A stretch of DNA of 32,000 nucleotides from contig NZ_JAUXZY010000002.1 of NCBI RefSeq assembly GCF_030693775.1, positions 93,361 to 125,360 of the forward strand. Reading direction: 5' to 3'. This DNA is from Polynucleobacter sp. (GTDB lineage: Bacteria > Pseudomonadota > Gammaproteobacteria > Burkholderiales > Burkholderiaceae). The notes beneath the pieces were generated by a model. The model was not told the origin of the DNA and made no database searches. It saw nothing but the letters and a program-made list of their open reading frames with translations. Within the stretch, counting starts at the first letter, position 1. Each line of letters begins with the position of its first letter. The position numbers and the translations under genes were made by a program. Below, one piece after another: positions 903-21,367 of the stretch.

Positions 903-2255
903 ATGATACCTATGAGGGCACTTCAATTTACGCAACATCGTATTTTTAGCAGTTTTTGGCTGTGGTTCGTTGCAATTCTAGTTATCAATCAACTACTGCT
1001 AATTATCGCAATTCGCTTTTTTCTCTTAAAGCCGCCGGCAGAAATTTTTGCCGATTCGATATTGATGATGAATGATGCTATACACCAAATTCGCATAGAT
1101 CAGGGTGACAGAGCAATAGAAAAATTATCACTTAAAGCGAAAATGTACAGCAGCACGGTTGAATTAGTTGATAGAGTTCCTGAAAAAATTACAAGTACCC
1201 GTTGGTATCCAGGCATATCAATAATCCAAGATTTCATCGCTAAGAAATCAAATGGGAAATTATCTATTGATTTTGAGCCCATACCGGATCTCTCGATCTG
1301 GCTTACCAATAGCGACTATCCAGGTCTAATATTAAAATTTAGCTACAAGGGGCAGCCTTTTACTAGGAACTATCTTGGTTGGGCATTTTTATTAACAATG
1401 GTATTGAGCTTGCTCGCCGCTTGGTGGATTGCGCGGAGAATAACCAGACCCTTATATCAACTGTCTGACCAAGCTCAAAATCTTGTTATTAGCAAAGAAT
1501 TTAATGCTATCAAAATAGATCCTAACGCTTCCCCGGAAATCAAAATTTTAACCAGAGCAATCAATGATATGCGCTCCGAACTGGATCGAACTATTAATGA
1601 CAGGGAAAACTTACTAGCCACAGTAACCCACGATTTACGGACCCCGCTAAGTCGGCTACAAATCGCCCTTGAGATGTTGGAGCCAACACAGCCCGATGCC
1701 ATTAAATCAACCCTTGAAGATGTATCTGAAATACGGATGATCTTGGAGCAATTTGTCGAACTATCAAAGTTAAATGTGGAGACAAATGAGTCATGGTCTT
1801 TGGAGGATTTAAATTCTTTTGTCGCAAAATTACGAGACCAATATCGTCGTGTAGGAGTTAATTTGCGGGCCATTCTAGAGGATAGCCCGGCCCCCATCTT
1901 GTGCAAACCAATAGCTCTTACTCGCCTGCTATATAACCTTATTGATAATGCATATCGTCATGGAGCCGGCAGCATTGAAGTTTCGGTAATTCGTGATGAT
2001 CAGGATTTTCTGTTACGAGTGAGCAATCATTTTGATAGCATGCATCAGGAAACTGGACTCACGCATGCATTCGCCGAAAATACTGGCAAGATGCCTGTCA
2101 CAGGCTTAGGGTTGCGAATTATCCATCAATTCGCCAAGGTACATCAAGCTGAGCTCGAAGAATCTCAACAGAATGGTATGAAAATATTTACTCTGCGTTT
2201 CAAGCCATCACTTGCAGAAGACTTGCCAGCAACTAAGAATGATATCGCTGAATGA
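903..2255 (+). CDS. envZ: EnvZ-like sensor histidine kinase
   Basis: 450 aa. Two predicted TM helices (FWLWFVAILVINQLLLIIAI; LGWAFLLTMVLSLLAAWWIA). H-box THDLRTPLSRL, N-box LIDNAYRHG, G-box GLGLRI. Tightly coupled to the upstream regulator gene. Confidence 0.9.
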   Translation: MIPMRALQFTQHRIFSSFWLWFVAILVINQLLLIIAIRFFLLKPPAEIFADSILMMNDAIHQIRIDQGDRAIEKLSLKAKMYSSTVELVDRVPEKITSTRWYPGISIIQDFIAKKSNGKLSIDFEPIPDLSIWLTNSDYPGLILKFSYKGQPFTRNYLGWAFLLTMVLSLLAAWWIARRITRPLYQLSDQAQNLVISKEFNAIKIDPNASPEIKILTRAINDMRSELDRTINDRENLLATVTHDLRTPLSRLQIALEMLEPTQPDAIKSTLEDVSEIRMILEQFVELSKLNVETNESWSLEDLNSFVAKLRDQYRRVGVNLRAILEDSPAPILCKPIALTRLLYNLIDNAYRHGAGSIEVSVIRDDQDFLLRVSNHFDSMHQETGLTHAFAENTGKMPVTGLGLRIIHQFAKVHQAELEESQQNGMKIFTLRFKPSLAEDLPATKNDIAE

Positions 2256-2348
2256 TTGCCTGCACCTCAAAATGATAATTTTATAAGGATCAGATAATCA
2301 TTTTTCCGCCAGCTATTTCAATGGATATTTAGAAAATGAAGGCTCACG

Positions 2349-2394
2349 ACTTTTAATCCGTTGGTCGCGAGTTCGAATCTCGCCCGACCCACCA
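2349..2394 (+). tRNA. Partial tRNA-Lys(UUU), 3' portion only (attachment-site remnant)
   Basis: Anticodon loop CTTTTAA (2350-2356). T-arm GCGAG-TTCGAAT-CTCGC (2367-2383). Acceptor 3' strand CCGACCC, then A, then CCA (2384-2394). Upstream there is no complementary 5' acceptor strand (GGGTCGG), no D-arm and no partner for the anticodon-stem strand TCCGT. Confidence 0.75.
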
Positions 2395-2405
2395 GTATCA
2401 AGAAA

Positions 2406-2431
2406 CCCCTACTAGCAATAGTGGGGGTTTT
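2406..2431 (+). terminator. Rho-independent terminator following the tRNA 3' fragment
   Basis: 9-bp stem CCCCTACTA / TAGTGGGGG (one G-U pair), GCAA loop, then TTTT. It starts 12 nt after the CCA end. Confidence 0.7.
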
Positions 2432-2548
2432 GTCTTCGTAGGTTGGTCAAATGTGGTGACTGTTCGGAACAATGCGGAGCTTTATGAACGTTTCGAGTGG
2501 GGATAGCCCACGCTAGATGACCGTTTGAACTATGAGCGTCTCAAGAGG

Positions 2549-2749
2549 TTACTTAGCGATCTTATGATCGCACTTGTTTACATCACCTGCGGCCAGAGAA
2601 AAACACCTAATTGTATCTTTGGCATCAATCATTAATTTCTCTGCCGCTATTAATAGCTCATGCGAAGAAATCTTCTTCAAACCTTGAGATTCAGCATTAA
2701 TTCTGTGAAATATTCGTTCAGTCAACTGAAGATTGGATAGCTTGCTCAT
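2549..2749 (-). CDS. Hypothetical small helical protein (66 aa), overlapping the upstream membrane-protein gene
   Basis: ATG preceded by AGGGAG about 8 nt upstream. Its start lies 32 nt inside the 3' end of the 353-aa ORF on the same strand, which suggests coupled expression. I recognise no motif. Confidence 0.5.
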   Translation of the reverse strand: MSKLSNLQLTERIFHRINAESQGLKKISSHELLIAAEKLMIDAKDTIRCFSLAAGDVNKCDHKIAK

Positions 2750-3779
2750 TAGATAACTCCCTTATTCCCAGTAAAGAAAATTCTAACTTCATGCGCAACT
2801 CAAAAGATCTAAGCAATTCAATATAGCTAGCCTTAAATCTTGTTTTGAAATAATGAGGTTGATCAGAATAGATTGAAATTACAAATATTACAGAATTAAA
2901 TTTTTCATAAAAAATTGGGTAGCAAATAAGAGATCCATCCTCATCTTTTCTTGTTGGATTCGGGGAAAACCTTGGTGAATCTTTATCCAGTTCCCGCTTA
3001 ATGCTCTCAATAATAAGAATGGACTTTGTATTTGCCGCATGCCTAATAGATGAATTAGGCTTATTCAATATATGAATCGGGGTTTTAACGCTGTGATTAT
3101 TAGGGTAATGAAACGGGATGTCATTTATGTAGCCATCTTGCATTTGCGCAAAATTAACCTTAAGAGTAAATTTTTCGCCTGGATTCTCAAGCTGCAAAAG
3201 CGCCAGCATAGATGAATGCAATCCTTGAACTAATTCGTTTAACTGGCTTGCAGGCTGGGTTATGGAGTTGAAAGTTTGCCCAATGTTTATAGGGCTATCC
3301 GAATTTTGAAGATCTATCAAAAAACGACTAAATCTTTGCTCTTTAGTTCCAACAATATTGTCGATTGAGCGGAGAAGAAGTGTAGGCATTTCTGTCCACC
3401 CATTTGGGTTCTCCTGATAAATGCTTTTTAGGAATTTATAGAAGGCAATTATAAAAAATGCCCACACACAACTAGCGAAGACTCCTATAACCATATATCG
3501 ATCAAGAAATTCTCCGGCATCGGGTAAATACTCCTTAATTTTTAATGCGAATCTATCTATCTGATAGTACTGCTGCAAAAAATAAGGTGGGAATGTTAAA
3601 ACAAAAGTTCCAAACAGCGAAAATAATATGGCGTGATTCTTTGAAAATCTTCTTGCATACGTTGCTAAGCCCACCAATATATTCGAATCTTTCCACTTTT
3701 CGAAAATGGATTTTTTGATGGGCGCAGACTTGACTACAATTTTGCGAGATCGCCTGTTCTTTTCACGGCTTTGGGTCAT
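2718..3779 (-). CDS. Hypothetical 2-TM membrane protein with GAF-like C-terminal domain
   Basis: 353 aa. Basic N-terminus. Two hydrophobic helices (AILFSLFGTFVLTFPPYFLQQYY; YMVIGVFASCVWAFFIIAFYKFL). The C-terminal segment GSLICYPIFYEKFNSVIFVISIYSDQPHYF...YIELLRSFE resembles the GAF-domain core pattern, but the similarity is weak and judged by eye. Confidence 0.7.
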   Translation of the reverse strand: MTQSREKNRRSRKIVVKSAPIKKSIFEKWKDSNILVGLATYARRFSKNHAILFSLFGTFVLTFPPYFLQQYYQIDRFALKIKEYLPDAGEFLDRYMVIGVFASCVWAFFIIAFYKFLKSIYQENPNGWTEMPTLLLRSIDNIVGTKEQRFSRFLIDLQNSDSPINIGQTFNSITQPASQLNELVQGLHSSMLALLQLENPGEKFTLKVNFAQMQDGYINDIPFHYPNNHSVKTPIHILNKPNSSIRHAANTKSILIIESIKRELDKDSPRFSPNPTRKDEDGSLICYPIFYEKFNSVIFVISIYSDQPHYFKTRFKASYIELLRSFELRMKLEFSLLGIRELSNEQAIQSSVD

Positions 3780-3870
3780 TAACTTAAATTCATAAATATC
3801 AATTCAACACTACACTACCATAAAGCACGCTCAGCAAATGATTGGTTCAGGGTGGCAATTGACCGCTAGC

Positions 3871-5285: not shown

Positions 5286-5368
5286 AAAGACCCCAAAAAT
5301 AACTATTTTCAGTTTAGTTATGGTGCATATAACTGTCTAGCTCTGATTTAAGGGATTTTATAACCGGC

Positions 5369-5391
5369 AAGTGTCGCGTTTCGAGACACTT
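5369..5391 (+). repeat. 23-nt direct repeat / putative att core (left copy)
   Basis: AAGTGTCGCGTTTCGAGACACTT is 22/23 identical to 16254-16276 in the same orientation. It contains an internal 7-bp inverted repeat AAGTGTC/GACACTT around a 9-nt spacer. Confidence 0.65.
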
Positions 5392-5850: not shown

Positions 5851-6225
5851 ATGTCTTGGCCACAATACTTTCCTCCTGAATGCCCACCAGCCGACTCACA
5901 AGATCTAGAGGTTACAGTTTTCAGGCTTGTAAGATCGCTCCCTCCAACTATCGAAGATTTTAAGCCAGCGCTCGTTGAATATCCACACAGAAATTTTTCG
6001 CCCGATAAGTTGTGTATGGCCTGTGGAGTTTCGGTTTTTTCTAAATTAAATGAGATTATCGATAAAAGAGATGCGTTCAAAGCATTGAGAAATAGAAAAA
6101 TTGCCAAGGGGTTAATCAGTCAAGGTGACGGTCCATTGTTACTATCCAACAAGGATTCACACATTACTTGGTGGTCAAAAATTCAGGCGCCACACATAAA
6201 TTTTGCAGAAGCCGTAAATGAATAG
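5851..6225 (+). CDS. Hypothetical protein (124 aa) with ECPPAD...C-x2-C(G)VSVF pattern
   Basis: Its stop overlaps the start of the next ORF by 8 nt (6218-6225). N-terminal FPPECPPADSQ...VFRLV...P..EDF and central LCMACGVSVF. I cannot assign a family. The SD is weak. Confidence 0.6.
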   Translation: MSWPQYFPPECPPADSQDLEVTVFRLVRSLPPTIEDFKPALVEYPHRNFSPDKLCMACGVSVFSKLNEIIDKRDAFKALRNRKIAKGLISQGDGPLLLSNKDSHITWWSKIQAPHINFAEAVNE

Positions 6226-7378
6226 CTCTGAATTTTTTAAGAAAATCATCGCTAACCTTACCCCATTAGAAATTTTCATTTTTCATGATGGTCCGAGATT
6301 CTATAGTTGTCGAGACTTAACTGGTCAACAGTATTTAGTTTATTGGGTAGATGAAACAGATCAAGGGGATGAATGGCTCTATGAAAGAGTGAGTCCAGAA
6401 AGACTTAATAGCTTGAAATCTGGACAAATCTCTATACATCAAGCTCTAAAGAATCCAGAGGATTATTGTGCATACATAGTAAAACCTTTTCATAACTCGC
6501 TTTCAGTTAATGAAATCTCCTGCGATCAAATTGAGGAAGATTGGCTTCCACCAGAATCATACTTTCTAAGTGTTGAAACAAAAACTTTGCCAGATAAATT
6601 AATATCAACTGACGCATTGGCGCTTAGCTCAAAAAGAGAAGTTTTAGATATTGCTTTTGTAAAAAAATCAAATGCATATGAACTTTCATGCGGAAAGCTT
6701 GGATTAATTTTGAATGCAATTCAATCAACAGTCAATTCATTGATGCTGCCAAGCGAATCAAACGTTCGGAAAATTCCAGAGCACTTAAAATATCAGTCTG
6801 AACTAAACATCACAGGAATATATGCGAGCTCTTTCGGAATTAGACTTCAGTCAAGAGGGAGCGAACTTTTGCCAGGAGGAGCCCTCTCTAGTGCGCTAGA
6901 GACTCTTAGTAGACTACTTTCAGAAACAGATTCGCCCGAGTTAATGGTTAAAAATATAAAAGCCGTTAATGTTTTGAGTCGTAGTAGATTTAAGAATCTA
7001 TTAACTACTCTTGTTGATTCAACGGTTGCCATAAAACTTGAGTGGGCATCCCCTGAGGGTCGTCAACTTTCAACAAACTGCTCTTACGAAAAATTAAGCC
7101 AATCACTTACAAAACTTGAGCAATCAGAAGAGGCAAACAAAGAAGATATCGATGTAAGCGGAAAACTAGTTGGAGTCGATGTAGAGAATGACTTTTTTGC
7201 AATAATTGCTGATGATAAAACCCTGATTAAAGGCAAACTATCAAAAGACCTCACTAATAGCAACTTTGTAGTGCCAAGCAGAATTCAAGCAATCATAGAG
7301 GCTACATGCGTGACCGATCCAGTTACAGATCGTGATAAGTGGTCTAACACTCTCATAAGTTATAAAAAATTGGAATAA
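6218..7378 (+). CDS. Hypothetical protein (386 aa), coupled to the 124-aa ORF
   Basis: Long uninterrupted ORF with ordinary amino-acid composition and an overlapping start. No catalytic motif recognised. Confidence 0.75.
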   Translation: MNSSEFFKKIIANLTPLEIFIFHDGPRFYSCRDLTGQQYLVYWVDETDQGDEWLYERVSPERLNSLKSGQISIHQALKNPEDYCAYIVKPFHNSLSVNEISCDQIEEDWLPPESYFLSVETKTLPDKLISTDALALSSKREVLDIAFVKKSNAYELSCGKLGLILNAIQSTVNSLMLPSESNVRKIPEHLKYQSELNITGIYASSFGIRLQSRGSELLPGGALSSALETLSRLLSETDSPELMVKNIKAVNVLSRSRFKNLLTTLVDSTVAIKLEWASPEGRQLSTNCSYEKLSQSLTKLEQSEEANKEDIDVSGKLVGVDVENDFFAIIADDKTLIKGKLSKDLTNSNFVVPSRIQAIIEATCVTDPVTDRDKWSNTLISYKKLE

Positions 7379-7536
7379 TGTTGGGCGGATAACTCCGCCT
7401 GCCCAGCCTTAATCTTCTGCCTAGCCCGCTCAGCTTTAATAGCTTGCTGATCACGCTTTACACGATCCTTCATTGATTTAAGTCTAGCTTGCTCTGGGCT
7501 TAATGGCTTTTGTGGGGCAATTTCATCAAATCTCAT
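7360..7536 (-). CDS. Possible small ORF (58 aa, highly charged coiled-coil-like)
   Basis: Hand-translated: MRFDEIAPQKPLSPEQARLKSMKDRVKRDQQAIKAERARQKIKAGQAELSAQHYSNFL. Its ATG lies 2 nt after the stop of the 48-aa ORF. It is below the 60-aa cut-off of the ORF track and has no clear SD. Confidence 0.3.
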   Translation of the reverse strand: MRFDEIAPQKPLSPEQARLKSMKDRVKRDQQAIKAERARQKIKAGQAELSAQHYSNFL

Positions 7537-7538
7537 AG

Positions 7539-7685
7539 TTAACCAATCTGCAGGGGTTGATGTGGCACGTTATTGGCACCAAAGATAGCTTGAAACAACC
7601 GATATGCCTGAGCCTGGTTTTGGGCGTACAAAATGGTCTCCACCCACATCCCTGCTGCATTTACTGTTGCCTTATATCTTTTCAT
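7539..7685 (-). CDS. Possible small ORF (48 aa)
   Basis: Hand-translated: MKRYKATVNAAGMWVETILYAQNQAQAYRLFQAIFGANNVPHQPLQIG. It lies 24 nt downstream of the 177-aa gene on the same strand. The composition is protein-like. No clear SD. Confidence 0.3.
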   Translation of the reverse strand: MKRYKATVNAAGMWVETILYAQNQAQAYRLFQAIFGANNVPHQPLQIG

Positions 7686-7709
7686 ATAGATATTTAGCAA
7701 ACCCGGTAG

Positions 7710-8243
7710 TCAACCACGCTTAACTTGATAATCCTCAATTTTAGGATCCCATATGTAGCTTAAGGATTCGGCATAGTCTTTGCCCACAAAAAGAAGAGTT
7801 TTCCGAATTTCATCAATTGAGACTCTATAAAGAACATTCTTTGCCTGACGGTCCGAGCAAAGCATAATTTCAGACCAATTTCGAGTTTTATCTCGTATTG
7901 CGAAAATTGCCCTGGAATGAATAAATTGATTGGCTAAATGCTTCACGGATATCTTGTCATCAAATTCGCGATCAAAAGAATAGAGCCTCTCAATATCAAA
8001 ATAATTTAACTTAGTGAGAGACCTTCTATTCCATGGCACACAGCGCACTGAAACTCTGTAATCATCAGATTTTTTTGATGTCTTATCCCTCTCAAGTAAG
8101 GTTCGGACGATATAAAAAGAAATCATGAGTTCTTTTTCAAAAATGACCAAAGCACGGTCGCTCCAGCGCTTTGGATTTTTTACAGGCCTAAGTCTTCGAG
8201 CATGATCCAGAAGGTCTTCTCGCCAATAATAAGATTCAATCAT
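7710..8243 (-). CDS. Hypothetical protein (177 aa), downstream partner of the HEPN-motif protein
   Basis: Same strand, 46 nt after the 330-aa gene. No motif recognised; ANQFIHSRAIF does not fit Rx4-6H. Confidence 0.7.
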   Translation of the reverse strand: MIESYYWREDLLDHARRLRPVKNPKRWSDRALVIFEKELMISFYIVRTLLERDKTSKKSDDYRVSVRCVPWNRRSLTKLNYFDIERLYSFDREFDDKISVKHLANQFIHSRAIFAIRDKTRNWSEIMLCSDRQAKNVLYRVSIDEIRKTLLFVGKDYAESLSYIWDPKIEDYQVKRG

Positions 8244-8289
8244 TCAAAATAACCCCCAGAAGTGCTGATTAAGATCTTAATAGGATGTA

Positions 8290-9282
8290 TTAATAATCAT
8301 AAATTGGATCAAAATTGCTCTGCTTAGCAATATGCTGATATGCGCGGTCTACAGCCTGGGTTAAATCTACAAATAACGCCTTTAATTTTGCATCAAAAAG
8401 ATTGATGTTTATTTCTCCAGTATGTACAAGCTGATTTCGATCGTTAACAATATTCTCTATAAGATCAAATAGACTTTCTTTTCTACCTCTATACGGCTTA
8501 CGTAAAATTGCGGCAATATCAATTTTAGAATCGACATATCCAAAATTTTTTGCAATTATGCTTGGACGTTGGAATGAAAAAGATTCCGCTATTAATCTTT
8601 CCGCTTGTAGGCTGCCCGCAATCAATTGCTCAAATTCAACATGGCCAAGCTTTGCTTGCTTTAGTGCGGACTCTCTTTTCCGAGAGTAGCGCAAACAAGC
8701 AGTAAAAGTTGCTCGGAAATATTCTTCCCATGCCGCTATTAAATAGGGAACCAACATATTATTTGATAATAAGCGTGGATTTAATTCATCTATAAAAGGA
8801 AGTCCCGAAGGCACATCTTTTGCTAAGTCACCACCTAGGTTACGATGCTGCAGATAAAGCTCAGCTCGCTGAAGATTGTTGTGAAACCTCCAACGAGCAA
8901 GATAACAACCGGAGGACAACGGTGAAGGTGCTGCTCCATTTGGACGCCAATAGCGATTTTTGCCTGCATCACTTTCAAAATGACCGCCAAATAGATCCCT
9001 CAATAACTTCAAAGTTCTATTTTGCTGCAAAAGATCCCAATAACTTCTCGAAACTCTTGATCTTGTGAAAATCTTAATTGGACCTTTTCTTGTTTTATAT
9101 ACCTCCAACTCAACACCCGTCCAAGAGCGATAATCCTTTTCATCAAACCAGTAATAGCTTGCGATTTGATTGGGCGCTTTGAAAGCATTTTTAACTTTTT
9201 TATACCCAAGTAATTCAGTAATGTCTCTAACTTGAGGAAGGGTTGCTGATAATTTAAGAATGCTAATAGAGGTATAGCTCAT
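8290..9282 (-). CDS. Protein with C-terminal HEPN-like domain (RNxxxH) and unknown N-terminal domain
   Basis: 330 aa. The C-terminal ~150 aa is helical and contains VNDRNQLVHTG (R282...H287, nt 8422-8439). This is the RNxxxH form of the HEPN Rx4-6H ribonuclease signature, followed by about 40 aa of helix. The N-terminal ~170 aa has no recognisable motif. Confidence 0.75.
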   Translation of the reverse strand: MSYTSISILKLSATLPQVRDITELLGYKKVKNAFKAPNQIASYYWFDEKDYRSWTGVELEVYKTRKGPIKIFTRSRVSRSYWDLLQQNRTLKLLRDLFGGHFESDAGKNRYWRPNGAAPSPLSSGCYLARWRFHNNLQRAELYLQHRNLGGDLAKDVPSGLPFIDELNPRLLSNNMLVPYLIAAWEEYFRATFTACLRYSRKRESALKQAKLGHVEFEQLIAGSLQAERLIAESFSFQRPSIIAKNFGYVDSKIDIAAILRKPYRGRKESLFDLIENIVNDRNQLVHTGEININLFDAKLKALFVDLTQAVDRAYQHIAKQSNFDPIYDY

Positions 9283-9368
9283 AGATCAGTACAAGGTAAT
9301 CATTGGTTGCGCTATAGCAAGCATACAACCAACTCATGCTTTAGATTTGAATCATCAAAATCTTTCTG

Positions 9369-9809
9369 TTAACGCCTAAATCCACTACGCAATCCAGCAC
9401 TAGCTGTCTCAATCTGCTCATCGAGCTCTCCCGCCTCTACAGCTGCTTTAATAGATTCCAGGGCTTTGATTAAAGCCTCTCCACTAGCTACTTCAACACT
9501 GGGCTTGCCTTTGGCTAGCTCAAGCGTCCAGCTGCCATATTTCACGGCGACACAGACTTTCCCTTCTTCACTTTGAAACCACCAGGGTTTAATCCGCTTA
9601 GGCACTTCAACCTGCTTGCGTATCCCTGTTTCACGATCTTTAACAGTTTTGTATTTCATGACTACAAATGGTGTTCCATTTAGCTGACTTTTTGCTAGCT
9701 GGATCTGCTCCCACAGCTTGGATCCCAGCTTATTCCTACGTATAACAATTACTGGCATATTACGAGGCTTTTTGACTGCGACTAGTTTGAGATGACTTAA
9801 TTGGCTCAT
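9369..9809 (-). CDS. Hypothetical protein (146 aa), first gene of the minus-strand cargo operon
   Basis: Strong SD (AGGAGA 6 nt upstream). Basic N-terminal half and a C-terminal helix (EALIKALESIKAAVEAGELDEQIE). It sits next to the AGTTGC repeat region, so a DNA-binding or regulatory role is possible but unproven. Confidence 0.75.
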   Translation of the reverse strand: MSQLSHLKLVAVKKPRNMPVIVIRRNKLGSKLWEQIQLAKSQLNGTPFVVMKYKTVKDRETGIRKQVEVPKRIKPWWFQSEEGKVCVAVKYGSWTLELAKGKPSVEVASGEALIKALESIKAAVEAGELDEQIETASAGLRSGFRR

Positions 9810-9963
9810 TTAATTCTCCTATGTAGTTAATGGGCTCATTAAGTGTGTTTTCGGTATGGAGTTTTGGTCGACCTCTTTTTTCCTAATTAGAAAATCGGCT
9901 CATTTTGGACATAAAAAATACGGTTTTTATTAACAAGGGCTAAATATTTACGAGTCGCGTAAT

Positions 9964-10115
9964 GAGTTGCATTGAGATGCGACTAAGAAATAAGTTGCAG
10001 TTGCAAATAGGAGTTGCTTTAGTTGCTGTATTTGGGACAAATGAGTAGCTCTGAACAGCAACTCAAGCAACAGCAACTATCTTTTGTCTCTGCTACTCCC
10101 TGCATCTCAAGCAAC
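9964..10115. promoter_or_regulatory. Divergent control region with inverted arrays of AGTTGC hexamers
   Basis: AGTTGC occurs at 9965, 9993, 9999, 10012 and 10021. The complement GCAAC(T) occurs at 10058, 10067, 10073 and 10111. The outer arms GTTGCATTGAGATGC (9966-9980) and GCATCTCAAGCAAC (10102-10115) form an imperfect inverted repeat. Confidence 0.6.
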
Positions 10116-10150
10116 ACCGCGACTCCTTTCAACATTCAAGGAGATTAAAA

Positions 10151-10684
10151 ATGAAAGAAATCACAGCCCGCTTATGGGAAAACAAAATGTATGGAACAAC
10201 CTTCGGCAAAGGTCAATATCGCAAAGCCATCTACAACGGCACATTAGAAATCCCCAGTCCCTATGCCAAGTATTTAGTAGATTTTGAGGAAGTTGAAGCA
10301 TGGTTCCACTTTCCAAAGAGTCCAGTGCATGTGGAAATGGCCAATCGCCTCAAGAACATCCCCACAAATGAAGACGGAGTATTAATGAGCTGGATATATC
10401 GCTATGAAGCTGGGATCAAAAGCGCAGTTGAAGGCTATGCGTCTTTGGATATGAACTACAGCAGAATTTATATTGAAATTAAAGATTCAGGGCACGGAAT
10501 AAAGGATTACTGGGAATTGCCTATCCGCAGCTGTATTGCCAGAATTCCCGGCAAACCCACTCCAGCACTAATAGCTACTACACAGTCTGAGCTAAATTCA
10601 CCTCAAAAACCGTCTACAAATGGCGTGTTTGCCGGGGGATATAAGCAAGCACTTGAGAACCTACAAAAATACGCTGTCCAGTGA
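10151..10684 (+). CDS. Hypothetical protein (177 aa)
   Basis: ATG with AAGGAG 8 nt upstream. No recognised domain. Confidence 0.75.
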   Translation: MKEITARLWENKMYGTTFGKGQYRKAIYNGTLEIPSPYAKYLVDFEEVEAWFHFPKSPVHVEMANRLKNIPTNEDGVLMSWIYRYEAGIKSAVEGYASLDMNYSRIYIEIKDSGHGIKDYWELPIRSCIARIPGKPTPALIATTQSELNSPQKPSTNGVFAGGYKQALENLQKYAVQ

Positions 10685-10772
10685 TTTGAGGTGTTAGCTA
10701 GCTTCGTGGGGTTTTGTCGTCTAAATCCCACGATATTTAGAAGATTTAGCTAAATACTTATAGAAAGAATCA

Positions 10773-10800
10773 GGCTAAGAATATTCACATATTCTTAGCC
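10773..10800. repeat. Perfect 12-bp hairpin (possible terminator or protein-binding site)
   Basis: GGCTAAGAATAT-TCAC-ATATTCTTAGCC. It lies 89 nt downstream of the 177-aa gene. No T-run follows, so it is not a canonical intrinsic terminator. Confidence 0.4.
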
Positions 10801-10936
10801 CAGTCTTGTAAGTCATTGATTCTTGGAAGGTCTTTTTGTCTTGTTACACGACACTTAGTAAACAAACTGAGGTCGACCTTTTCCCGTTAAGGAAACATAC
10901 TTAAAACGCACATTTTATTTATGACAGGAAAACCAA

Positions 10937-11503
10937 ATGGCACAAGCAAAAACCTTATCTCAAGCCGAACTTGATCAAGTTCTAGACTACGTCAGCACCA
11001 AAAAATATGCTTTGCGTGATCGCGCAATCATTCTTACCAGTTTTCTCGCAGGCCTTCGCGTTGCGGAGATCGCATCTTTAACCATGGGAGACGTAGTGAA
11101 CCCCGATGGCACCATTAAAAACGAGATTCGACTATCGGCAGCGCAGACCAAAGGCAAATACCCCAGAACCGTATTTGTTTCTCAGCGACTACAAACAGAG
11201 TTGGCCAACTACTTAACAACAAGACACGCCAAAGGCGCTGATATTCCCTTCTTTCATACCGATCATCGCTTACGCTTTAGCCCCAATGGCTTATGCGTAT
11301 GGTTTCATCAGCTGTACAAGAATGTGGGAATTAGCGGCGGTAGTAGCCACTCGGGAAGAAAATTTTTCATCACAACTTTGGCTAATAAAGGCATCGGCGT
11401 GCGAATCTTAGCCAGTCTTGCTGGTCACAGATCGATTGCCGTAACGCAAAGATATATCGATGTGAATGATGAACAAAAGAGAAATGCTGTGGAGCTTATC
11501 TAA
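10937..11503 (+). CDS. Short tyrosine recombinase (catalytic domain only, 188 aa)
   Basis: Catalytic signature residues in order: R (LAGLRVAEI), K (TKGKYPRTV), HxxR (SHSGRKFF), H (AGHRSIAVT), Y (QRYIDV). There is no N-terminal core-binding (SAM-like) domain. Confidence 0.85.
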   Translation: MAQAKTLSQAELDQVLDYVSTKKYALRDRAIILTSFLAGLRVAEIASLTMGDVVNPDGTIKNEIRLSAAQTKGKYPRTVFVSQRLQTELANYLTTRHAKGADIPFFHTDHRLRFSPNGLCVWFHQLYKNVGISGGSSHSGRKFFITTLANKGIGVRILASLAGHRSIAVTQRYIDVNDEQKRNAVELI

Positions 11504-11517
11504 TATAAAGTAAGGCA

Positions 11518-12051
11518 TTACTCTAAATTGAGTGATGTCTTATCTTCGGCAACACGTTGCTTAACCGATTTTTCTTCGAAATCATCCAAGAAAGCGGTTT
11601 GACGTAAGCGATATTCAATGGTGGGCATTGAAAGTAAATCAGCTTTTAAGCCCTCTTTAATCCAAATGCGATCCCTAATTTCACCCCGGGCATATTTGGA
11701 GATTGCAGCGTCATTTAACTCAAGAAATAACGCCCGCACATTGCCAAAGTCGTGAACCACAAAGCGGTCCTCCCAGCTATCAGGCAGCGTTGGTAAGTCT
11801 GGACTGGCTGCATCTACGTAATAACCGAATTCATCTTCAAACGCACTACCTTGACCAATAATCGCAGCAATCTCACCTGCGCGAGCTGGATCATCTTTTG
11901 GATACATATCGACATCAATAGATCTAACCATCTCATCTGGAGGAGGAACTTCAAGACCCAGGGCGGTCAGGCTACCAATAATGACGTAGTCAGTGTGATT
12001 GGTAATCTTTTTAGCTTCAGTTAATACGTGATGAATATGATTCAGATTCAA
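11518..12051 (-). CDS. Nucleotidyltransferase-fold protein (MNT/DUF6036-like), TA-type
   Basis: 177 aa. Pol-beta NTase motif IIGS...(x22)...SIDVDMY. The apparent start is TTG, overlapping the TGA stop of the upstream 110-aa ORF. Confidence 0.75.
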   Translation of the reverse strand: MNLNHIHHVLTEAKKITNHTDYVIIGSLTALGLEVPPPDEMVRSIDVDMYPKDDPARAGEIAAIIGQGSAFEDEFGYYVDAASPDLPTLPDSWEDRFVVHDFGNVRALFLELNDAAISKYARGEIRDRIWIKEGLKADLLSMPTIEYRLRQTAFLDDFEEKSVKQRVAEDKTSLNLE

Positions 12052-12380
12052 CGAACTTCTTTCATCAGAAAGCTAAATGGGGAATTTTGTGCAAGCGCAT
12101 GTGCCTGAGGAGCGTCACCACAAACCTCTTGCTCCATTTCGGACGGGTCGGCATTTATCAATCTTCTCCAGGAGTCAATGTAAAAACGACTACATAACTC
12201 TTTTTCCTCCCACATCCGAATACGAACTTCAGCTTGATGTACTACATCATTACGACGATCAGATCGAAGTAATATCAGAGCGTGACGATGCAACCTACCA
12301 AGTTTTTCGTACTTCTCAGCATCAGCTTTGCGTGCTAAAACACGCATGGAGAGGGAAAGATTAGGTTTAACGCTTTGCAT
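12048..12380 (-). CDS. Hypothetical small partner of the nucleotidyltransferase (110 aa)
   Basis: Translationally coupled to the NTase gene. Contains DRRNDVVHQ, an RNxxxH-like string placed too near the N-terminus for a canonical HEPN fold. The antisense ORF 12077-12364 is less likely given the coupling. Confidence 0.55.
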   Translation of the reverse strand: MQSVKPNLSLSMRVLARKADAEKYEKLGRLHRHALILLRSDRRNDVVHQAEVRIRMWEEKELCSRFYIDSWRRLINADPSEMEQEVCGDAPQAHALAQNSPFSFLMKEVR

Positions 12381-12452: not shown

Positions 12453-12879
12453 AAAAATCAAGTTATTTCCGCCAAGTAAAAACTAGTTCACATCCCTATC
12501 GTCGATCTTATAAAGCAATGCCTTATGAGTTCTTAATCGATATTCAAAAAGCCATAATCTCCTAGTAAAAATATCTCTATAAACCGGCCGGATTTTCGAG
12601 CTAATTTGTTGCTGTCTTCTTAGTCAAATTTCAATATCATTTTTATTAAATTTCTTCAAACAGAGTTTTTTGATGATTTTTTCTCAAAATTAAAATTGCC
12701 CTACAAGCCCCTGTTCATGAGGCTTTGATTTTTCGGAATTTTCTGTCAAGGAAATAAAACAACGCGGTGATTTGTTCGAAAAATCCCAAAAATATACAGT
12801 GACTCCATCAACACAAAAAGTTTCATCAGCACTTTCGCTAAAACGTGTTGGTAATTTTATAACTTGAAGGAGCAACACC

Positions 12880-13656
12880 ATGAGAATCACAGCAAATCAG
12901 AAGCATGAAATCGCTAGCGCGACATTGGTAAAACTCGATGCACTAGCAAACCGTCGTCAAGTCTGGCAACGGGACTTTTACGACAAATCCAATAAGGGTC
13001 TTTATGCCCTTCTCTCAGAGTGTCTTGGTATGTATTACGAGATCAAGGGTAGCCCTGCTGAGAAGGTTGTATTAGAAGGCATTAAAGCCAACCTAGAAGG
13101 TCGTGGCATCAAAGTACAAGCCAGCACTCCAGTACTAACCTTGATCGTCAAGTACGTGTTTAATGCCGAGCGTCGCAGAGCAAGCGCCTATTCACGTGCA
13201 TTACGAGTGGCAGCCAAAGAAGCGGTATCTGTTGGCAATTTTGCCGAATGGGTAACCAAAGTAGGCGGCGTTGAGGAAGTGGCCAGCACCAAGGGCATTA
13301 CTGATGAAACTATCAAAAAACGTAGTCAGCTTGATAACAAGGTGTCAGAGGTTAAGCAATTGCTTGTTAGCCAGCTGCAACACCCCTTAGCGTTGGTGCC
13401 AAAAACTGCCTTAGCCCACCCAGCCGACTCTGCTGAGTACACCTTGTTAATTGGCAAGATGCTAGCTAGCGGTCAAACGCAGGTCTTAAGCGTTGTTCCG
13501 GGTTCGTCTGGCGCCATGATTGAGCAGGCGATTCGCAAGATCGCGCAAGAATTGCTCAACAAGGTCGAGGAGCATGTCAAAGCCCAGGCAGAACTCGCAG
13601 CGCAAGCGGCGATTACTGAAGCAGCCAATCAAGCCTTCTTTAAAGAAATGGCTTAA
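12880..13656 (+). CDS. Hypothetical protein (258 aa) with C-terminal coiled coil
   Basis: AAGGAG SD. The C-terminus is Ala/Gln/Glu-rich and helical. No enzymatic motif. Confidence 0.8.
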   Translation: MRITANQKHEIASATLVKLDALANRRQVWQRDFYDKSNKGLYALLSECLGMYYEIKGSPAEKVVLEGIKANLEGRGIKVQASTPVLTLIVKYVFNAERRRASAYSRALRVAAKEAVSVGNFAEWVTKVGGVEEVASTKGITDETIKKRSQLDNKVSEVKQLLVSQLQHPLALVPKTALAHPADSAEYTLLIGKMLASGQTQVLSVVPGSSGAMIEQAIRKIAQELLNKVEEHVKAQAELAAQAAITEAANQAFFKEMA

Positions 13657-13731
13657 GCCTTTGCAAGCCTTGACAGGGGTGTAGCACTTACTGGCTCACC
13701 CCTGCTTTTACCCAATCAGAAAGGAATTACC

Positions 13732-14445
13732 ATGAGCTTCGCACTCAAATACGCCCCAACTCGTCTCGATGATGTAGTTATAGGCAGCCAAACCCTTAAA
13801 AATAGGCTATCTGACTACATCAACGATCGCGACTTAAAGCCCCTCATCCTTCACGGCGGGGTTGGAACTGGGAAAACTACCATTGCCAATTTATTGCCTG
13901 ATGCCATCGAAAGTAAAAAGGCAGAAGTTACCCGTCTTAAAGCGGTGGAATTTAATTCCATCAATGATGTCATACAGGCGTTTGGTGATCAAACTATGTT
14001 TTATCAGGTGTTTACGATCAATGATCAAAAACGCAACTACATCATTTCTAATGAAATTAACTTCACCCCCAAAGCAGCAATAGCTTTTAGAGATGTAATC
14101 GATGACATGATCGGTCATACCCAGTTCATCTTTACAACGAACTACATCGATCAAGTCGACATTGCCTTACGTGATCGCAGCAACTGCTTGGCTGTGCCTC
14201 CAGTAACAGCAAAAGACTGGCTTTCCCGAGCACAGTGGATCTTGCAGCAAGAAGGTATTGCCCTACCAGATGATCAGCTACTCAAAGTCCTATCAGCGCA
14301 ATTACAAATAAGCTCTAGCAATCGTAAATTATTGGAGCGTCTTGAAGACTTTGTTAGATCGGTACGAAATCCTCCAAGCAATCCTGGCGGAATTATTGAG
14401 CTGGCACCTATCCCAGAGCCGATTAACCCCTTGATGGCTGCTTGA
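13732..14445 (+). CDS. Clamp-loader (RFC/DnaX/delta-prime)-like AAA+ protein with degenerate Walker B
   Basis: 237 aa. N-terminal KYAPTRLDDVVIG resembles the KYRP..l.d..G opening of clamp-loader subunits. Walker A is GGVGTGKTT. The Walker B position reads IISNEIN instead of hhhhDE(A/x)D. The SRC-like position reads LRDRSN. The C-terminal collar domain is absent. Confidence 0.8.
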   Translation: MSFALKYAPTRLDDVVIGSQTLKNRLSDYINDRDLKPLILHGGVGTGKTTIANLLPDAIESKKAEVTRLKAVEFNSINDVIQAFGDQTMFYQVFTINDQKRNYIISNEINFTPKAAIAFRDVIDDMIGHTQFIFTTNYIDQVDIALRDRSNCLAVPPVTAKDWLSRAQWILQQEGIALPDDQLLKVLSAQLQISSSNRKLLERLEDFVRSVRNPPSNPGGIIELAPIPEPINPLMAA

Positions 14446-14491
14446 CCACACCAGTACTAGCCCTAGTGGCTAGTACTTATAAGGAATTAAT

Positions 14492-15040
14492 ATGCGCTAC
14501 CCAAGAACAGTCTTTGTTTTTGACACTCCAAACCATGGCATAGATCAAGAATACTTTCAGATGATTAGCTCATCTTCACAGAAGATCTATATACGCGGGC
14601 ATTCAAAACCAATTGGGACAATTGATTCTGAGCTTGATGCCATCAAAATTTTGGATGGGTATCTCAACTTTACCGGCCCAAATCGATCCTATATGGTCAT
14701 CGGCAATCTAAAGCATGTCGAATTTATTGCCACTAGCCTGGCTGATAAAGATTGCTCCATCTATTGGCTCATGAATAAGAATTCAGCTTTATGCATTCGC
14801 GCAGCTTTAAGTGCCTTACTTGATCTTCATGAAATGGAAGCCTTATTTAACGAGGCGCTTTACTACTACACTAAATCCAGAGATCGGTATCAAGCATTAT
14901 CCGATTCCAGGCACATATCAAACGATGATTTTCCCCAGCTTATTGCGGACATCATCAATGGAGGAAAACAGGTTGAGCTACGGGCAGATATTGAAAGTTT
15001 TTTATGCGAAGAATTGCATATCGGGAAGTTTGAGATCTAA
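14492..15040 (+). CDS. Hypothetical protein (182 aa)
   Basis: AAGGA SD. Its 3' end overlaps the convergent integrase stop by 4 nt. No motif. Confidence 0.7.
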   Translation: MRYPRTVFVFDTPNHGIDQEYFQMISSSSQKIYIRGHSKPIGTIDSELDAIKILDGYLNFTGPNRSYMVIGNLKHVEFIATSLADKDCSIYWLMNKNSALCIRAALSALLDLHEMEALFNEALYYYTKSRDRYQALSDSRHISNDDFPQLIADIINGGKQVELRADIESFLCEELHIGKFEI

Positions 15041-16251
15041 GCCAACTTAGCGGCTGCCATCATTGGGGTCAGTTTTGAGTAATGACGCTCAATCATTAAT
15101 GTCGAGGTACCCATTTGCCTAGCTAGGGTGTGTATATCAATACCTTCAGCTAGTGCAAATGTGGCATAGGTATGGCGTAGGCTATACAGGCTACGATTAC
15201 GCCCCGCTACATCTTTGAGTAAATTACATTCTTTTAAGAGATTCTCAAACTGAGGATTAAAGTTATAGGGCTGAACCCCTCTTGGGAAAGTAAATATCAG
15301 ACGATCTAACCTGGCCTCAATGACTTCATTAAGGTCTTTATATGGCAATTGATGCCAAGCAATTAATCTTTCCAAGCAATCCACTACCAAATTTTTAGCA
15401 ATTAAATATCGAGGTCCTGTTTTACCGGAAAGCCAAACCTTAAGATACCGCTGATCGCCAATCCAATGCCATTGCAAATGCTTCCAGCGCATGGGCTTTA
15501 GCTCGGTTCCGGGCCTAGCTCCTGTGTAAAGCAAGAATTCGACATAGGAGCGACATAGTTGCCTCATCTCCTTGGTGCGAGATGATCTGCCAACCTTTTC
15601 CCAGCTAGGCATATAGCCCAATAATTGAGCGATCTCTTCCTTACTAAAGGCGGGTCTTGCTTGACTGGGAGAGCCATGGGGATCCAATAAAGGCACCCGA
15701 TAACTATCGGCAATGAGGTTTTGCTCTCTTGCTAGAGCAACTACCCGGTTATAGGTCGTAGCATGGGTGCGTTTTGTACTTGCCTGGGGATCTCTACCCA
15801 TCTGTGATGAGCGCCAAGATTCAAAATCCTTAACCAGCTCTGGGGTGATTTCCTTTAGCTGGAATTTTCCAAAAAATGGAATGAGGTATTTATTGAGGAC
15901 AAATTTGTAATCCTTAAAGATGGCTTTGCCATTACCTTCTTTATTGGCAACGTCCATCACCACGAGATCTTCTTCAGCTAACTGCTTAAATGACTTGGAT
16001 TTGAGGCTCAATTCCTGACTAATCTTAGCCATGGTCTGCTCATAAAGCGCTATAGAGGCATGCTTGGCCTCTTCAAGATCCGCCTGGCCAGTGCTCATGG
16101 AGTGCCACTGACAATTGGGCAACCTAAAGCGGCATTGCCATTGATTGCTGCCTGATCGCTTAAAGAGACTTACTAAACCTCGGTGGAGGTGAATTACATC
16201 AGCAGACTGGGATGCACTAGATTTGAAGAAAAGCTGGTTTAGATTTTGCAC
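15037..16251 (-). CDS. Tyrosine-type site-specific integrase
   Basis: 404 aa with a GTG start. Catalytic motifs: LYTGARPGTEL (Arg I), LRHTYATFAL (HxxR), and IERHYSKL (nucleophile Tyr). The N-terminal WQCRFRL region is an arm-binding type. The gene abuts the 23-nt repeat. Confidence 0.92.
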   Translation of the reverse strand: MQNLNQLFFKSSASQSADVIHLHRGLVSLFKRSGSNQWQCRFRLPNCQWHSMSTGQADLEEAKHASIALYEQTMAKISQELSLKSKSFKQLAEEDLVVMDVANKEGNGKAIFKDYKFVLNKYLIPFFGKFQLKEITPELVKDFESWRSSQMGRDPQASTKRTHATTYNRVVALAREQNLIADSYRVPLLDPHGSPSQARPAFSKEEIAQLLGYMPSWEKVGRSSRTKEMRQLCRSYVEFLLYTGARPGTELKPMRWKHLQWHWIGDQRYLKVWLSGKTGPRYLIAKNLVVDCLERLIAWHQLPYKDLNEVIEARLDRLIFTFPRGVQPYNFNPQFENLLKECNLLKDVAGRNRSLYSLRHTYATFALAEGIDIHTLARQMGTSTLMIERHYSKLTPMMAAAKLA

Positions 16252-16253
16252 TC

Positions 16254-16276
16254 AAGTGTCGTGTTTCGAGACACTT
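16254..16276 (+). repeat. 23-nt direct repeat / putative att core (right copy)
   Basis: AAGTGTCGTGTTTCGAGACACTT begins 3 nt beyond the integrase start codon. It is 22/23 identical to 5369-5391. Confidence 0.65.
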
Positions 16277-16667: not shown

Positions 16668-19016
16668 TTAATTTCTCCTTAAACGTAACGCATTTGTAAT
16701 GACCGAGGCTGAGCTCAAGCTCATGGCAAGTGCAGCAATTAATGGTGAGAGTAACCATCCAGTGAAAGGATATAAGAGACCAGCAGCAATAGGAATGCCC
16801 AGTGCGTTATAAAGAAACGCAAACACTAGGTTTTGCTTCATATTGCCTACCGTATCGTCTGAAAGCGACTTAGCAATCGCAATACCTCTGAGATCACCTT
16901 TAACTAAAGTAATTTGGGCGCTATTCATAGCAACGTCAGTACCGGTGCCCATAGCAATACCAACATTGGCTTTTGCTAAAGCTGGAGCATCATTGATGCC
17001 ATCACCTGCCATTGCAACAATCCGACCTTCATTTTGTAGTCGAGTTACCAATTCGAGCTTATCTGCTGGCTTAACCTCTCCATAGACCTCTTCAATCCCA
17101 AGGCGCTTGCCAACAGATTTAGCAGTTGTTAATCCATCTCCAGTTGCCATCACAATTCGCAATCCCGCCTCTCTTAAGGTTTGCAAAGCCTCTGGCGTAG
17201 TAGCCTTAATAGGATCAGAGACAGCTAAAAGTCCAGCAAGCTTTCCGTTGATAGCTAAATGCATCACGCTAGCGCCTTCAGAGCGGAGCTCCTCTGCTTG
17301 GGCTTTCAAAATATCAACAGAAACTCCCAGCTTATCCATCAATGCAGTATTACCCAACGCCAAATGAAACAAGCCAACGCTACCTTGAACTCCAATTCCT
17401 GAACTAGATTCAAAGTTTTCAGGTTTCTCCAGGGGCAAATTACCATCTCTTGCAGCACGAACAATCGCATCGGCAAGAGGATGCTCACTGCCCTGATCAA
17501 GACTTGCTGCAAGCTTTAAGACCTCATTACCATCAAAGCTGGGCGCAGGAATAACTCTATCAAAAATTGGCTTACCCTCTGTTAAGGTGCCTGTTTTATC
17601 AATAATGAGGGTGTTCACCTTACGAAGATTTTCAATGGCCGCAGCGTCGCGGAACAAAATTCCCTTTGTCGCCCCTTTACCAGTAGCAACCATAATCGAC
17701 ATTGGCGTGGCAAGACCTAGGGCACAAGGGCAAGCAATGATTAATACCGAAACCGCATTGATTAAACCAAAGACCCAACTTGGTTCGGGGCCAAAGATCC
17801 CCCAAATGAAAAAAGTCAGTAAAGCTATCGCTACAACCGTTACTACAAAATATCCCGCAACAATATCTGCCATTCGCTGCATTGGTGCTCTGGAGCGTTG
17901 GGCTTGAGCTACCATTTGCACAATTTGAGCCAGCATGGTTGATGAACCAACACGCTCGGCTTTAATAATCAATGCGCCATTGGTATTCATCGTTGCTCCA
18001 ATCACACGATCACCGATACGCTTAGTAACTGGCAATGGCTCCCCGGTAAGCATGGATTCATCAAGCGCACTAGAGCCTTCAACAATGACGCCATCAACAG
18101 GCACTTTTTCACCTGGGCGCACCCTCAATAAGTCTTCAATATGAACATTTGATAAAGGAATATCTTCCTCAGATCCATCGCCCTTAATTCTTCTAGCTGT
18201 TTTAGGAGCTAAGCCCAGCAAGGATTTAATTGCCGCAGAAGTTTGTGAACGTGCCTTTAGTTCCAACACCTGACCAAGCAGAGTCAATGAAATAATGACG
18301 GCGGCTGCCTCAAAATACACACCAATCCTGCCCATAGACATAAAGGAAGCAGGAAATACTTGTGGAGCTACCGTAGCAACAACGCTATACAAAAATGCAG
18401 CACCTGTTCCCAATCCAATCAAAGTCCACATATTTGGACTGCGATTGGCTATGGATTGCCAGCCACGATAAAAGAATGGCCATCCTGCCCATAAAACAAT
18501 TGGTAAGGATAGGAATAATTCAACCCAGGTTTGGGTTTGAGACTCAAGTAGATTAAGTTTATGGCCAAACATCGCAAGGACAGTCACCACTGTCGTCAAA
18601 GGCAGCGTCCACCAAAATCGTCTTTGAAAATCAACTAATTCTGGATTTTCTTCTTCCTCTAATTCAGGCAACAGAGGCTCTAAACTCATTCCACAAATTG
18701 GGCAATTACCTGGTTGATTCTGCCGAATTTGCGGATGCATGGGGCAGGTATAAATTGTGCCGGCCACCGAAGCAGGCGACTCTGAGTCCTTTAGTCCCCC
18801 ATCTAGATACTTGCTGGGCGCTCCAATAAATTTTTCTTTACAACCATTGCTGCAAAAGTAATACGCAATATTCTTAAGCGAGTAACTATGCTTAGACTGA
18901 GAAGTGACCGTCATCCCACAAACAGGATCCTTCAAGGAATTTTCATCTGAAGAATGTTCGTGATGGGAGTGATCGTGTCCATGCTCATGATGATTGTTCT
19001 CATTGTGCTTACTCAT
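16668..19016 (-). CDS. copA: Copper-translocating P1B-type ATPase
   Basis: 782 aa. His-rich N-terminus. TRASH/YHS-like DPVCGMTV...YYFCSNGC. A second metal site YTCPMHP...CPICGM. TM CPC motif [21 protein letters not shown] and GDGINDAP are present. Confidence 0.95.
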
Positions 19017-19033
19017 TGCAAATCCTTGTTTAC

Positions 19034-19543
19034 CTAATTCATTAAAACTGGCGTATCTGGGATTTCATTATCTGAAGATGATTTACCTGGGAATTGACTT
19101 TGCAATAGTTGACTCACCATTTCAATTCCAGACAAAATGCCAGCCTGATATTCATTGAGCGCAAATTTGGATTCGATCTCATGACAAATAACATCCCACG
19201 CACTGGCATCCGCATTTGAATGAATGCCTCTATCGGCAATTATCTCTACAGCATGATCGGCTAATAAAATATAAATGAGCACCCCATTATTGTGCTCGGT
19301 ATCCCAAACTCTGAGATTGGTAAAGACTTCAATTGCACGATCTCTAGGGCTTAAGTCTTTTAACAAGGCAAGCGTATCCAGGGCACCTTCCACGGCAAAA
19401 CAGATTTGACCCGAATGTTGAGCCTCACTATCTCGAATCGCATTTGTTATTGCGGCAAGATCTTCCTTGGAAAAGCATTTCTCTACCTTGCGACTATGAG
19501 ACCAGAGATGTTTTATTAATCGATTCATATTCATGCTTACCAT
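19034..19543 (-). CDS. TPM-domain protein (cytoplasmic type)
   Basis: 169 aa. GGGGAG SD. Overlaps the upstream TPM gene by 7 nt. The core [10 protein letters not shown]...[22 protein letters not shown] is TPM/TLP18.3-like. Confidence 0.75.
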
Positions 19544-20400: not shown

Positions 20401-20414
20401 GGAAGATACTCCAA

Positions 20415-21017: not shown

Positions 21018-21104
21018 TTGTTACTCCTTTACTTAATTGAAGTTTGAGTCTTTAAGAACAGTCACCTTTTTAGATGTCTAAAAAATTGGGAATTAAAGAG
21101 AGTG

Positions 21105-21365: not shown

Positions 21366-21367
21366 AT

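Follow-up and report, generated by a model that had tools for sequence, protein, structure and literature searches.

Within a 32,000-nucleotide window of a Polynucleobacter sp. genome (RefSeq assembly GCF_030693775.1, contig NZ_JAUXZY010000002.1, positions 93,361 to 125,360 of the forward strand; herein the window), a 10.9-kb integrative element carries a gene for a 330-aa protein (herein A; 8290..9282, minus strand; WP_305485406/WP_108507854), which is the core of this report. We read A as a self-sufficient, solo HEPN protein in which a long linker helix joins a conserved N-terminal domain to a HEPN domain of the RiboL-PSP/AbiD-AbiF branch, with a predicted active site made up of R282, H287 and E186; we put the probability of this reading at roughly 0.55. 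By analogy with known single-protein systems, A probably acts alone as a phage-defense or toxin protein. The gene 46 nt downstream on the same strand encodes a 177-aa alpha+beta protein (herein B; 7710..8243, minus strand; WP_108507855), which across genomes is a facultative neighbor of A. Both genes appear in the list of open reading frames (ORFs) of the window. An earlier sequence-only reading had proposed the two as a candidate abortive-infection or toxin module built on a HEPN motif; every position that it gave for the ORFs, their strand, the gap and the motif is correct.

The HEPN domain of A (aa 161 through 330; 8290..8802, minus strand) contains the sequence DRNQLVHTG, in which R282-N-Q-L-V-H287 (8422..8439, minus strand; R282 through H287 read as nt 8439-8422) forms the predicted catalytic Rx4H motif; H287 lies 43 residues from the C terminus, in line with the distance of about 40 aa proposed earlier. 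The sole Pfam match of A is HEPN_RiboL-PSP (PF18735; aa 175 through 299, E = 1.5e-4, 22.1 bits). Scanned singly, 23 of 25 homologs match the same model (best E = 5e-6), and the match is precomputed for at least eight database homologs of A. R282, N283 and H287 are invariant among the 25 homologs (52 to 80% identity). A more diverse set of 17 C-terminal domains, which includes Firmicutes, Verrucomicrobia and a 24 to 26%-identical Escherichia coli protein, leaves N174, P179, E186, F237, Q238, R282 and H287 invariant; R, H and E186 are retained down to 24 to 30% identity. Family-wide, the R of the Rx4-6H motif is followed by a small polar residue, which is N, H or D in the 17 diverse members; in the 26%-identical E. 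coli prophage homolog the motif reads RHGIVH. The HEPN reading of the C-terminal half, with its Rx4H site intact, is supported.

The AlphaFold2 (AF2) model of A (mean predicted local distance difference test score, pLDDT, 88; predicted template modeling score, pTM, 0.84) is all-helical from residue 169 to 322, with long helices at 169 through 198, 271 through 288 and 297 through 322 and short insert helices between 203 and 261. The motif occupies the C-terminal end of the penultimate helix (271 through 288), before the loop to the last helix (297 through 322), a position that agrees with the published description of HEPN domains (PMC3710099). A profile of the C-terminal domain searched against the Protein Data Bank (PDB) returned sub-significant matches only (E = 0.18 to 0.37); three of these are HepT HEPN toxins, and the weak alignments to HepT fall exactly on the RNxxVH motif. 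Because PF18735 matches most of the homologs, R and H do not vary and the motif occupies the expected place in its helix, the assignment of the C-terminal half to the RiboL-PSP branch of HEPN domains is well supported at family level. It is not new: UniRef labels the E. coli homolog a “RiboL-PSP-HEPN domain-containing protein”, and the JGI label of A is “predicted nucleic-acid-binding protein”.

The remainder of A is the less familiar part. Residues 1 through 115 (8938..9282, minus strand) are predicted to form an alpha/beta domain of five strands and two helices, followed in the AF2 model by a long helix (121 through 146). The sequence-only reading could place no motif in this region, and searches of Pfam, NCBIfam, PADLOC and PDB sequences likewise gave no match. 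The best Foldseek hits of the A model in the PDB are generic small alpha/beta domains (spermine synthase N-domain, YwmB, Iml3, BamC-N) and are uninformative (best E = 6e-3, template modeling score ~0.2). The domain is as conserved as its partner (mean pairwise identity of 63% vs. 60% for HEPN) and has 30 invariant columns. A profile search with the N-terminal domain alone retrieved only full-length, or truncated and frameshifted, copies of the same architecture, and the idea that it is also paired with other effector domains was accordingly rejected. Its description as a novel domain holds because it has no database match and is never found apart from the HEPN domain; judged from these searches, it appears to be an unrecognized domain always fused to an A-type HEPN domain. 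We propose a sensor or regulatory role for it. Two subfamilies can be told apart by their starts, “MSYTS...” (A itself) and “MGRDxTLYP...” (E. coli, Pseudomonas, Geovibrio, Chloroflexi).

AbiD, AbiD1 and AbiF proteins are ~330 to 350 aa in length. These Abi_2 proteins resemble A in being single-gene lactococcal abortive-infection HEPN proteins of similar size carried on mobile DNA; no Pfam Abi_2 or PADLOC AbiD match to A was found at E ≤ 1, and regulatory upstream RNA or tandem repeats of the AbiF kind were not found at A. Anantharaman et al. (2013, PMC3710099) describe RiboL-PSP-HEPN as a distant relative of AbiD and AbiF, which links the two branches. With RiboL-PSP-HEPN proteins A shares the only family model that matches it and an active-type Rx4H motif; it differs from them in lacking an L-PSP endoribonuclease fusion or a ParB/DUF262 operon partner (neither A nor its neighbors contain an L-PSP or ParB domain) and in carrying the fixed, unrecognized 115-aa N-terminal domain. 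The resemblance to HepT-MntA (HEPN-MNT) is confined to the nonsignificant helix alignment described above; there is no nucleotidyltransferase gene next to A, and HepT is minimal, at ~135 aa.

In function, A is best compared with HepS of prophage Gifsy-1. HepS is a solo HEPN protein of abortive infection that lacks a partner gene, is nontoxic when overexpressed and forms an inactive tetramer; once activated by phage tail-tip proteins, it cleaves tRNA anticodon loops (PMC13043305). Like HepS, A is a single HEPN protein that a prophage or mobile element carries without any conserved partner or inhibitor. Unlike A, HepS has its motif (R100-H105) far nearer the N terminus, which suggests that it lacks a large N-terminal domain, and we saw no sequence or Foldseek match between the two. 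A thus resembles known single-protein HEPN abortive-infection genes by analogy, with the addition of a new fixed N-terminal domain. Judging from other HEPN defense proteins, A would be made constitutively in an inactive state, and two HEPN domains would pair to form a composite ribonuclease site. The N-terminal domain would hold the enzyme off until an infection cue is sensed; cleavage of RNA (tRNA, mRNA or rRNA) would then arrest the cell, either as abortive infection or as an addiction-type toxin of the mobile element. B would be dispensable for A.

The distribution of A would suit a gene that travels by itself. Clustered at 90% identity, the homologs of A form at least 351 clusters, nearly all of 329 through 331 aa. 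When one genome per species was scanned with sequence patterns, 43 A loci were located among 185,579 species genomes; this is a lower bound, as members of the E. coli-type subfamily escape the patterns. The 43 loci span at least 10 phyla and include Beta-, Alpha- and Gammaproteobacteria as well as Acidobacteriota, Nitrospirota, Verrucomicrobiota, Cyanobacteria, Planctomycetota, Bdellovibrionota, Spirochaetota and Firmicutes; so patchy a spread implies horizontal transfer. No neighboring gene family recurs across the 43 loci. Some have defense or mobile genes beside A (Gabija, PARIS, PDC-M24B, PDC-S19, TumE, integrases), and a 66%-identical copy (P0005) stands without B beside IS110, with Prok-E2/multi-ubiquitin genes adjoining.

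The E. coli homolog is full-length (26% identity, E = 5e-29; R293 and H298 correspond to R282 and H287 of A). In a P2-like prophage it is the only cargo gene in the interval from tail gene D (gpD) to ogr. It occurs as a single copy in 65 of 5,426 complete E. coli genomes (1.2%), always annotated as hypothetical, and is represented by the protein of Escherichia phage 500465-2 (NC_049343 gp34, WP_192297589; 5989-7011 of locus L069; a further example is L072). Its gpD-ogr position lies outside the P2 defense hotspots listed in the excerpted text of PMC13586616. In Geovibrio thiophilus (CP035108) a copy, likewise without B, is split into 240-aa and 113-aa ORFs (L093, 5001-6077) and is a probable frameshift pseudogene; it sits in an island beside smpB, an integrase gene and HipA. 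A was not found on PLSDB plasmids. We propose that A is transmitted horizontally as a single gene, by way of integrative islands, P2-like prophages and scattered chromosomal sites. The earlier statement that the domain combination and gene pairing match no named defense system has stood: PADLOC-DB 2.0 (2023) gave no match for A or B at E ≤ 1 and none for the E. coli homolog at E ≤ 0.01. We found no publication describing the A family, the term “RiboL-PSP” turning up in a single unrelated preprint.

Several observations weigh against reading A as a solo HEPN defense protein. A's own PF18735 score of 22.1 bits falls below the gathering cut-off of 28.4, and the structural check suggested in the sequence-only reading was divided: the predicted secondary structure fits HEPN, but a Foldseek search of the PDB with the full-length model gave no significant match, HEPN or other. 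Many A loci are flanked by housekeeping genes, for example those for ThiC, Pol A, GyrB and EF-Tu. The family is also conserved to a degree that is unusual for a defense gene, with a mean pairwise identity of 62% (25 aligned, mostly proteobacterial homologs) and with relatives in other phyla still 41 to 61% identical to A. The family is absent from PADLOC 2.0 and NCBIfam, and a pattern scan of IMG/VR found no member. Finally, the adjacency of A and B recurs in two gene orders, so B may be more than optional.

This last point bears on the partnership that the sequence-only reading had proposed. B adjoins A in 3 of the 43 genomic A loci, a broad hidden Markov model (HMM) of B included, and the other 40 (~93%) contain no B-like ORF; most B loci, in turn, lack A. 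Linkage between the two is therefore recurrent but confined to a minority of loci, and since B is present at so few A loci and is found mostly elsewhere, A is not half of an obligate pair but a solo gene with a facultative, recurrent neighbor. Where the genes do stand together they have diverged in parallel, the A/B identities to the window being 100/100, 80/79 and 67/~59%. The 80/79% pair lies on one contig (P0002/P0122) and the 67/~59% pair in the L002 and P0004 contigs, and the gap between the genes in these diverged pairs is 38 to 56 nt. The order is inverted, with B ahead of A, at L040, an alphaproteobacterial locus with a 5-nt gap (B HMM E = 1.7e-36), and at L060, a contig from a metagenome. 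Because A is so rare among species genomes, adjacency that recurs in this way is very unlikely to be due to chance; the link appears optional rather than random. As a check on the proposed partnership, co-occurrence thus removes B as a defining partner but retains the recurrent adjacency, in both orders. In Polynucleobacter, B is probably co-transcribed with A, where it would be either a modulator that A can do without or a further cargo gene independent of A.

The P0004 contig holds one further HEPN locus. A canonical PF18735 HEPN gene, separate from A, and an adjacent GmrSD_N/DUF262 gene lie ~3 kb from its A-B pair, together with TumE and Fic; the classical RiboL-PSP-HEPN plus ParB-like operon and the A family thus occur on one contig.

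A closer tie would make A and B a true two-gene system like RnlA-RnlB or LsoA-LsoB, the HEPN toxin encoded first and B, in the lineages that have it, acting as a neutralizer or regulator that gates A. The layout in the window would suit such a system: the genes share a strand, are 46 nt apart and have a ribosome-binding site ahead of B (a Shine-Dalgarno-like GGGGG run 9 nt before its ATG). RnlA and LsoA are also multidomain proteins with a C-terminal HEPN domain and a small second gene on the same strand (PMC8266594 and general background). The parallel divergence of the pairs, the reversed order in two very different lineages and the improbability of repeated chance adjacency for so rare a gene all speak for it. 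An antitoxin-dependent toxin, however, is not expected to stand alone as often as A does, at 40 of 43 loci even when the broad HMM is used, in P0005 and throughout the E. coli/Geovibrio subfamily; B for its part occurs without A in a range of settings described below, has an alpha+beta fold and belongs to a huge independent family. A shows no Pfam, PDB-sequence or Foldseek match to RnlA or LsoA. We consider a two-gene system unlikely, and favor A as a solo protein.

B belongs to a family of its own. A word-index search found 18 homologs; an HMM search of 1.84 billion representative proteins brought the family to at least 1,488 clusters at 50% identity (E ≤ 1e-3), of which 1,008 pass E ≤ 1e-10, the members being nearly all single-domain proteins of 170 through 200 aa. 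No convincing Pfam match was obtained for 52 diverse members, and B has no match in NCBIfam, PADLOC, the PDB (by sequence or Foldseek) or BFVD (by Foldseek). Its AF2 model (pLDDT 93) comprises two long N-terminal helices and a sheet of approximately eight strands. W7, E36, R47, K48, K54, H109, S110, S130 and D131 are conserved family-wide, as might be expected of an enzyme or of a protein with a specific binding site. The possibility that B is a degenerate HEPN protein, with NQFIHS in place of the RNQLVH of A, is ruled out by the alpha+beta model and by an hhalign probability of 0.4% between A and B. B had no match in the IMG/VR pattern scan or in a phage collection; distant plasmid copies occur in Scytonema, Leptospira and Halioglobus, where they are hypothetical or unannotated.

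The contexts of B without A are varied. B is found among housekeeping genes (L048, L051, L061, L085), after an AAA ATPase gene plus a 70-aa ORF, in Tn7-like cargo beside Gabija, where it overlaps a 126-aa ORF, and adjoining Avs2-like and PD-T4-6 kinase genes. In one lineage (P0124; L079 through L082, with B at 5001-5534 in L079) it starts 54 nt after a ParD antitoxin gene and is abutted by an 86-aa ORF that is ParE-like by eye only, in an island that also holds AbiEi/AbiEii, Gabija and the S subunit of a restriction-modification system. The idea that B is a toxin replacing ParE is weak, as the ParE-like ORF after B gives the order parD-B-parE. Small ORFs upstream of B homologs (64 to 87 aa) have no mutual similarity and do not form one family.

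Some neighborhoods of B homologs merit separate mention. Small proteins encoded directly upstream of B at L060 (3-344) and L064 (1637-2745) carry R[NC]xxxH motifs (RNTISH, RNGLAH, RCGMVH); judged by these motifs, the B family may be linked more widely to candidate HEPN-like proteins. At L047 an Avs2-like STAND NTPase (923-3865; PADLOC E = 4e-153) lies 226 nt downstream of a 177-aa B homolog; its match to the Avs2 model begins only at position 178, so that the usual N-terminal effector region is missing.

From its settings, on either side of A, within parD/parE, behind small Rx4H proteins and beside Avs2, Gabija and PD-T4-6, B might be read as an unrecognized module of conflict systems, a toxin/effector or a regulator that serves diverse operons and that, where paired with A, would make up a new two-component HEPN system. 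We hold this doubtful, and favor A acting without B. It is more doubtful still that A and B are simply unrelated single-gene cargo without a functional link, adjacent only through the tight packing of defense islands. Each gene is far commoner alone than with the other, the hotspot in which they lie exchanges neighboring cassettes freely (see below), and hhalign finds the two proteins unrelated; against this stand at least three deeply diverged lineages in which the genes adjoin, in both orders, on the same strand and with gaps of 5 to 56 nt, a recurrence hard to obtain by chance given the rarity of A. Least probable of all is a housekeeping-type role for A, as a HEPN protein that binds or processes RNA and is found on mobile DNA in some genomes incidentally: its high full-length conservation (~60 to 65% mean pairwise identity per domain) and the metabolic and informational genes that flank many loci would suit such a role, but it is very patchily distributed over many phyla, sits within a prophage in the 1.2% of E. 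coli genomes that have it, exists in frameshifted copies and lies repeatedly beside integrases, insertion sequence (IS) elements, toxin-antitoxin (TA) genes and defense genes.

If A does work as a solo HEPN defense protein, its new and highly conserved N-terminal domain would be among the few that possibly couple infection sensing to HEPN ribonucleases, in a family that ranges from freshwater Polynucleobacter to Firmicutes. Thanks to the homolog in E. coli P2-like prophages, a standard host and standard phages would suffice to test the idea directly. B is of interest in its own right as a member of a very large family without annotation or structural relative that appears repeatedly in defense and TA loci; a function for B would annotate more than 1,000 protein clusters.

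Gene order around A is constant in Polynucleobacter (DUF6641-A-B-48aa-58aa). The DUF6641 gene (9369..9809, minus strand; PF20346, E = 3e-15) lies 86 nt upstream of A and is linked to it only in this lineage (L073 through L078); it is not upstream of A in L002 or at other loci. Downstream of B are the two tiny ORFs that the sequence-only reading had counted with the operon. The first (7539..7700, minus strand) would encode 53 aa from a TTG or 48 aa from the ATG at 7685, the latter being the likelier start; a 48-aa gene is called at the equivalent position in L073, L074, L076 and L077. The second (7360..7536, minus strand) is a lysine/arginine-rich ORF of 58 aa that begins 4 nt past the stop of the first and is translationally coupled to it. 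Conservation of the first ORF (94 to 98%) is limited to L001, L052 and L053, and it is absent in L002; the conserved block stops inside the 3' end of the second, where homology to related contigs ends (~7391-7400). The tiny ORFs are present on the same strand as described, but their place in the module was not borne out, both being conserved within the Polynucleobacter lineage only. A promoter and terminator scan of 7200-10200 gave signal at or below the shuffle expectation, and no RNA antitoxin or type III TA repeats were found near A (Rfam, TRF).

The operon is cargo of an integrase-bounded element, as first suggested. Direct repeats of 24 nt (5368..5391 and 16253..16276, 23 of 24 bases identical) bracket 10.9 kb that ends at the gene for a 404-aa tyrosine integrase (15037..16251, minus strand), directly beside the right copy. 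Pfam matches the integrase weakly, to Phage_integrase and SAM-like domains (E ~2e-4 to 8e-4). The repeat, CAAGTGTCG(C/T)GTTTCGAGACACTT, is palindromic and recurs at the equivalent place in five related contigs (L073 through L077); the repeats are probably att sites. From the left, the element comprises PD-T4-10 A and B, the two tiny ORFs, B, A, the DUF6641 gene and a 177-aa ORF, followed by a 188-aa tyrosine recombinase consisting of the catalytic domain only, a DUF6036 nucleotidyltransferase pair, a 258-aa ORF, an AAA protein and a 182-aa ORF before the integrase. Beyond the element, one flank holds a two-component system and the other flank copper-resistance genes.

The two-gene cassette facing the operon (5851..7378, plus strand; 124 aa and 386 aa) had been taken as unknown, which proved wrong: both components of PD-T4-10 are matched in PADLOC, with modest scores (PD-T4-10_A, E = 1.1e-6; PD-T4-10_B, E = 9.6e-12), and the genes share one strand with an 8-nt overlap. 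The second component also matches PDC-M63B (2e-12) and Pfam DUF6575 (1e-21). On these matches the cassette is assigned to the known PD-T4-10 system. Related contigs share 7391-11055 with the window at 92 to 98% nucleotide identity and diverge past 7391. In L053, PDC-M48B (E = 5e-156) and a DEDDh/PDC-S48 gene take the place of PD-T4-10, and homology returns exactly at the repeat, at position 5391; the slot beside A and B is a cassette-swapping defense hotspot.

Other genes in and around the element are noted for completeness. Within it, the gene for the DUF6036 nucleotidyltransferase (177 aa) overlaps by 4 nt an upstream 110-aa ORF without a family match, and the two (together 11518-12380, minus strand) could be a TA-like pair. 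Directly outside it, a large copper/heavy-metal resistance cluster (16668-30971) encodes two P-type ATPases, a multicopper oxidase, a cupredoxin, an outer-membrane efflux protein and LemA/TPM proteins. On the related Polynucleobacter contig L073, the region just outside the left repeat, beyond genes for a 124-aa protein and HSDR_N_2, encodes a 592-aa fusion of reverse transcriptase and trypsin along with a patatin (both within 12830-14993); the equivalent place in the window is taken by a 353-aa ORF of unknown family.

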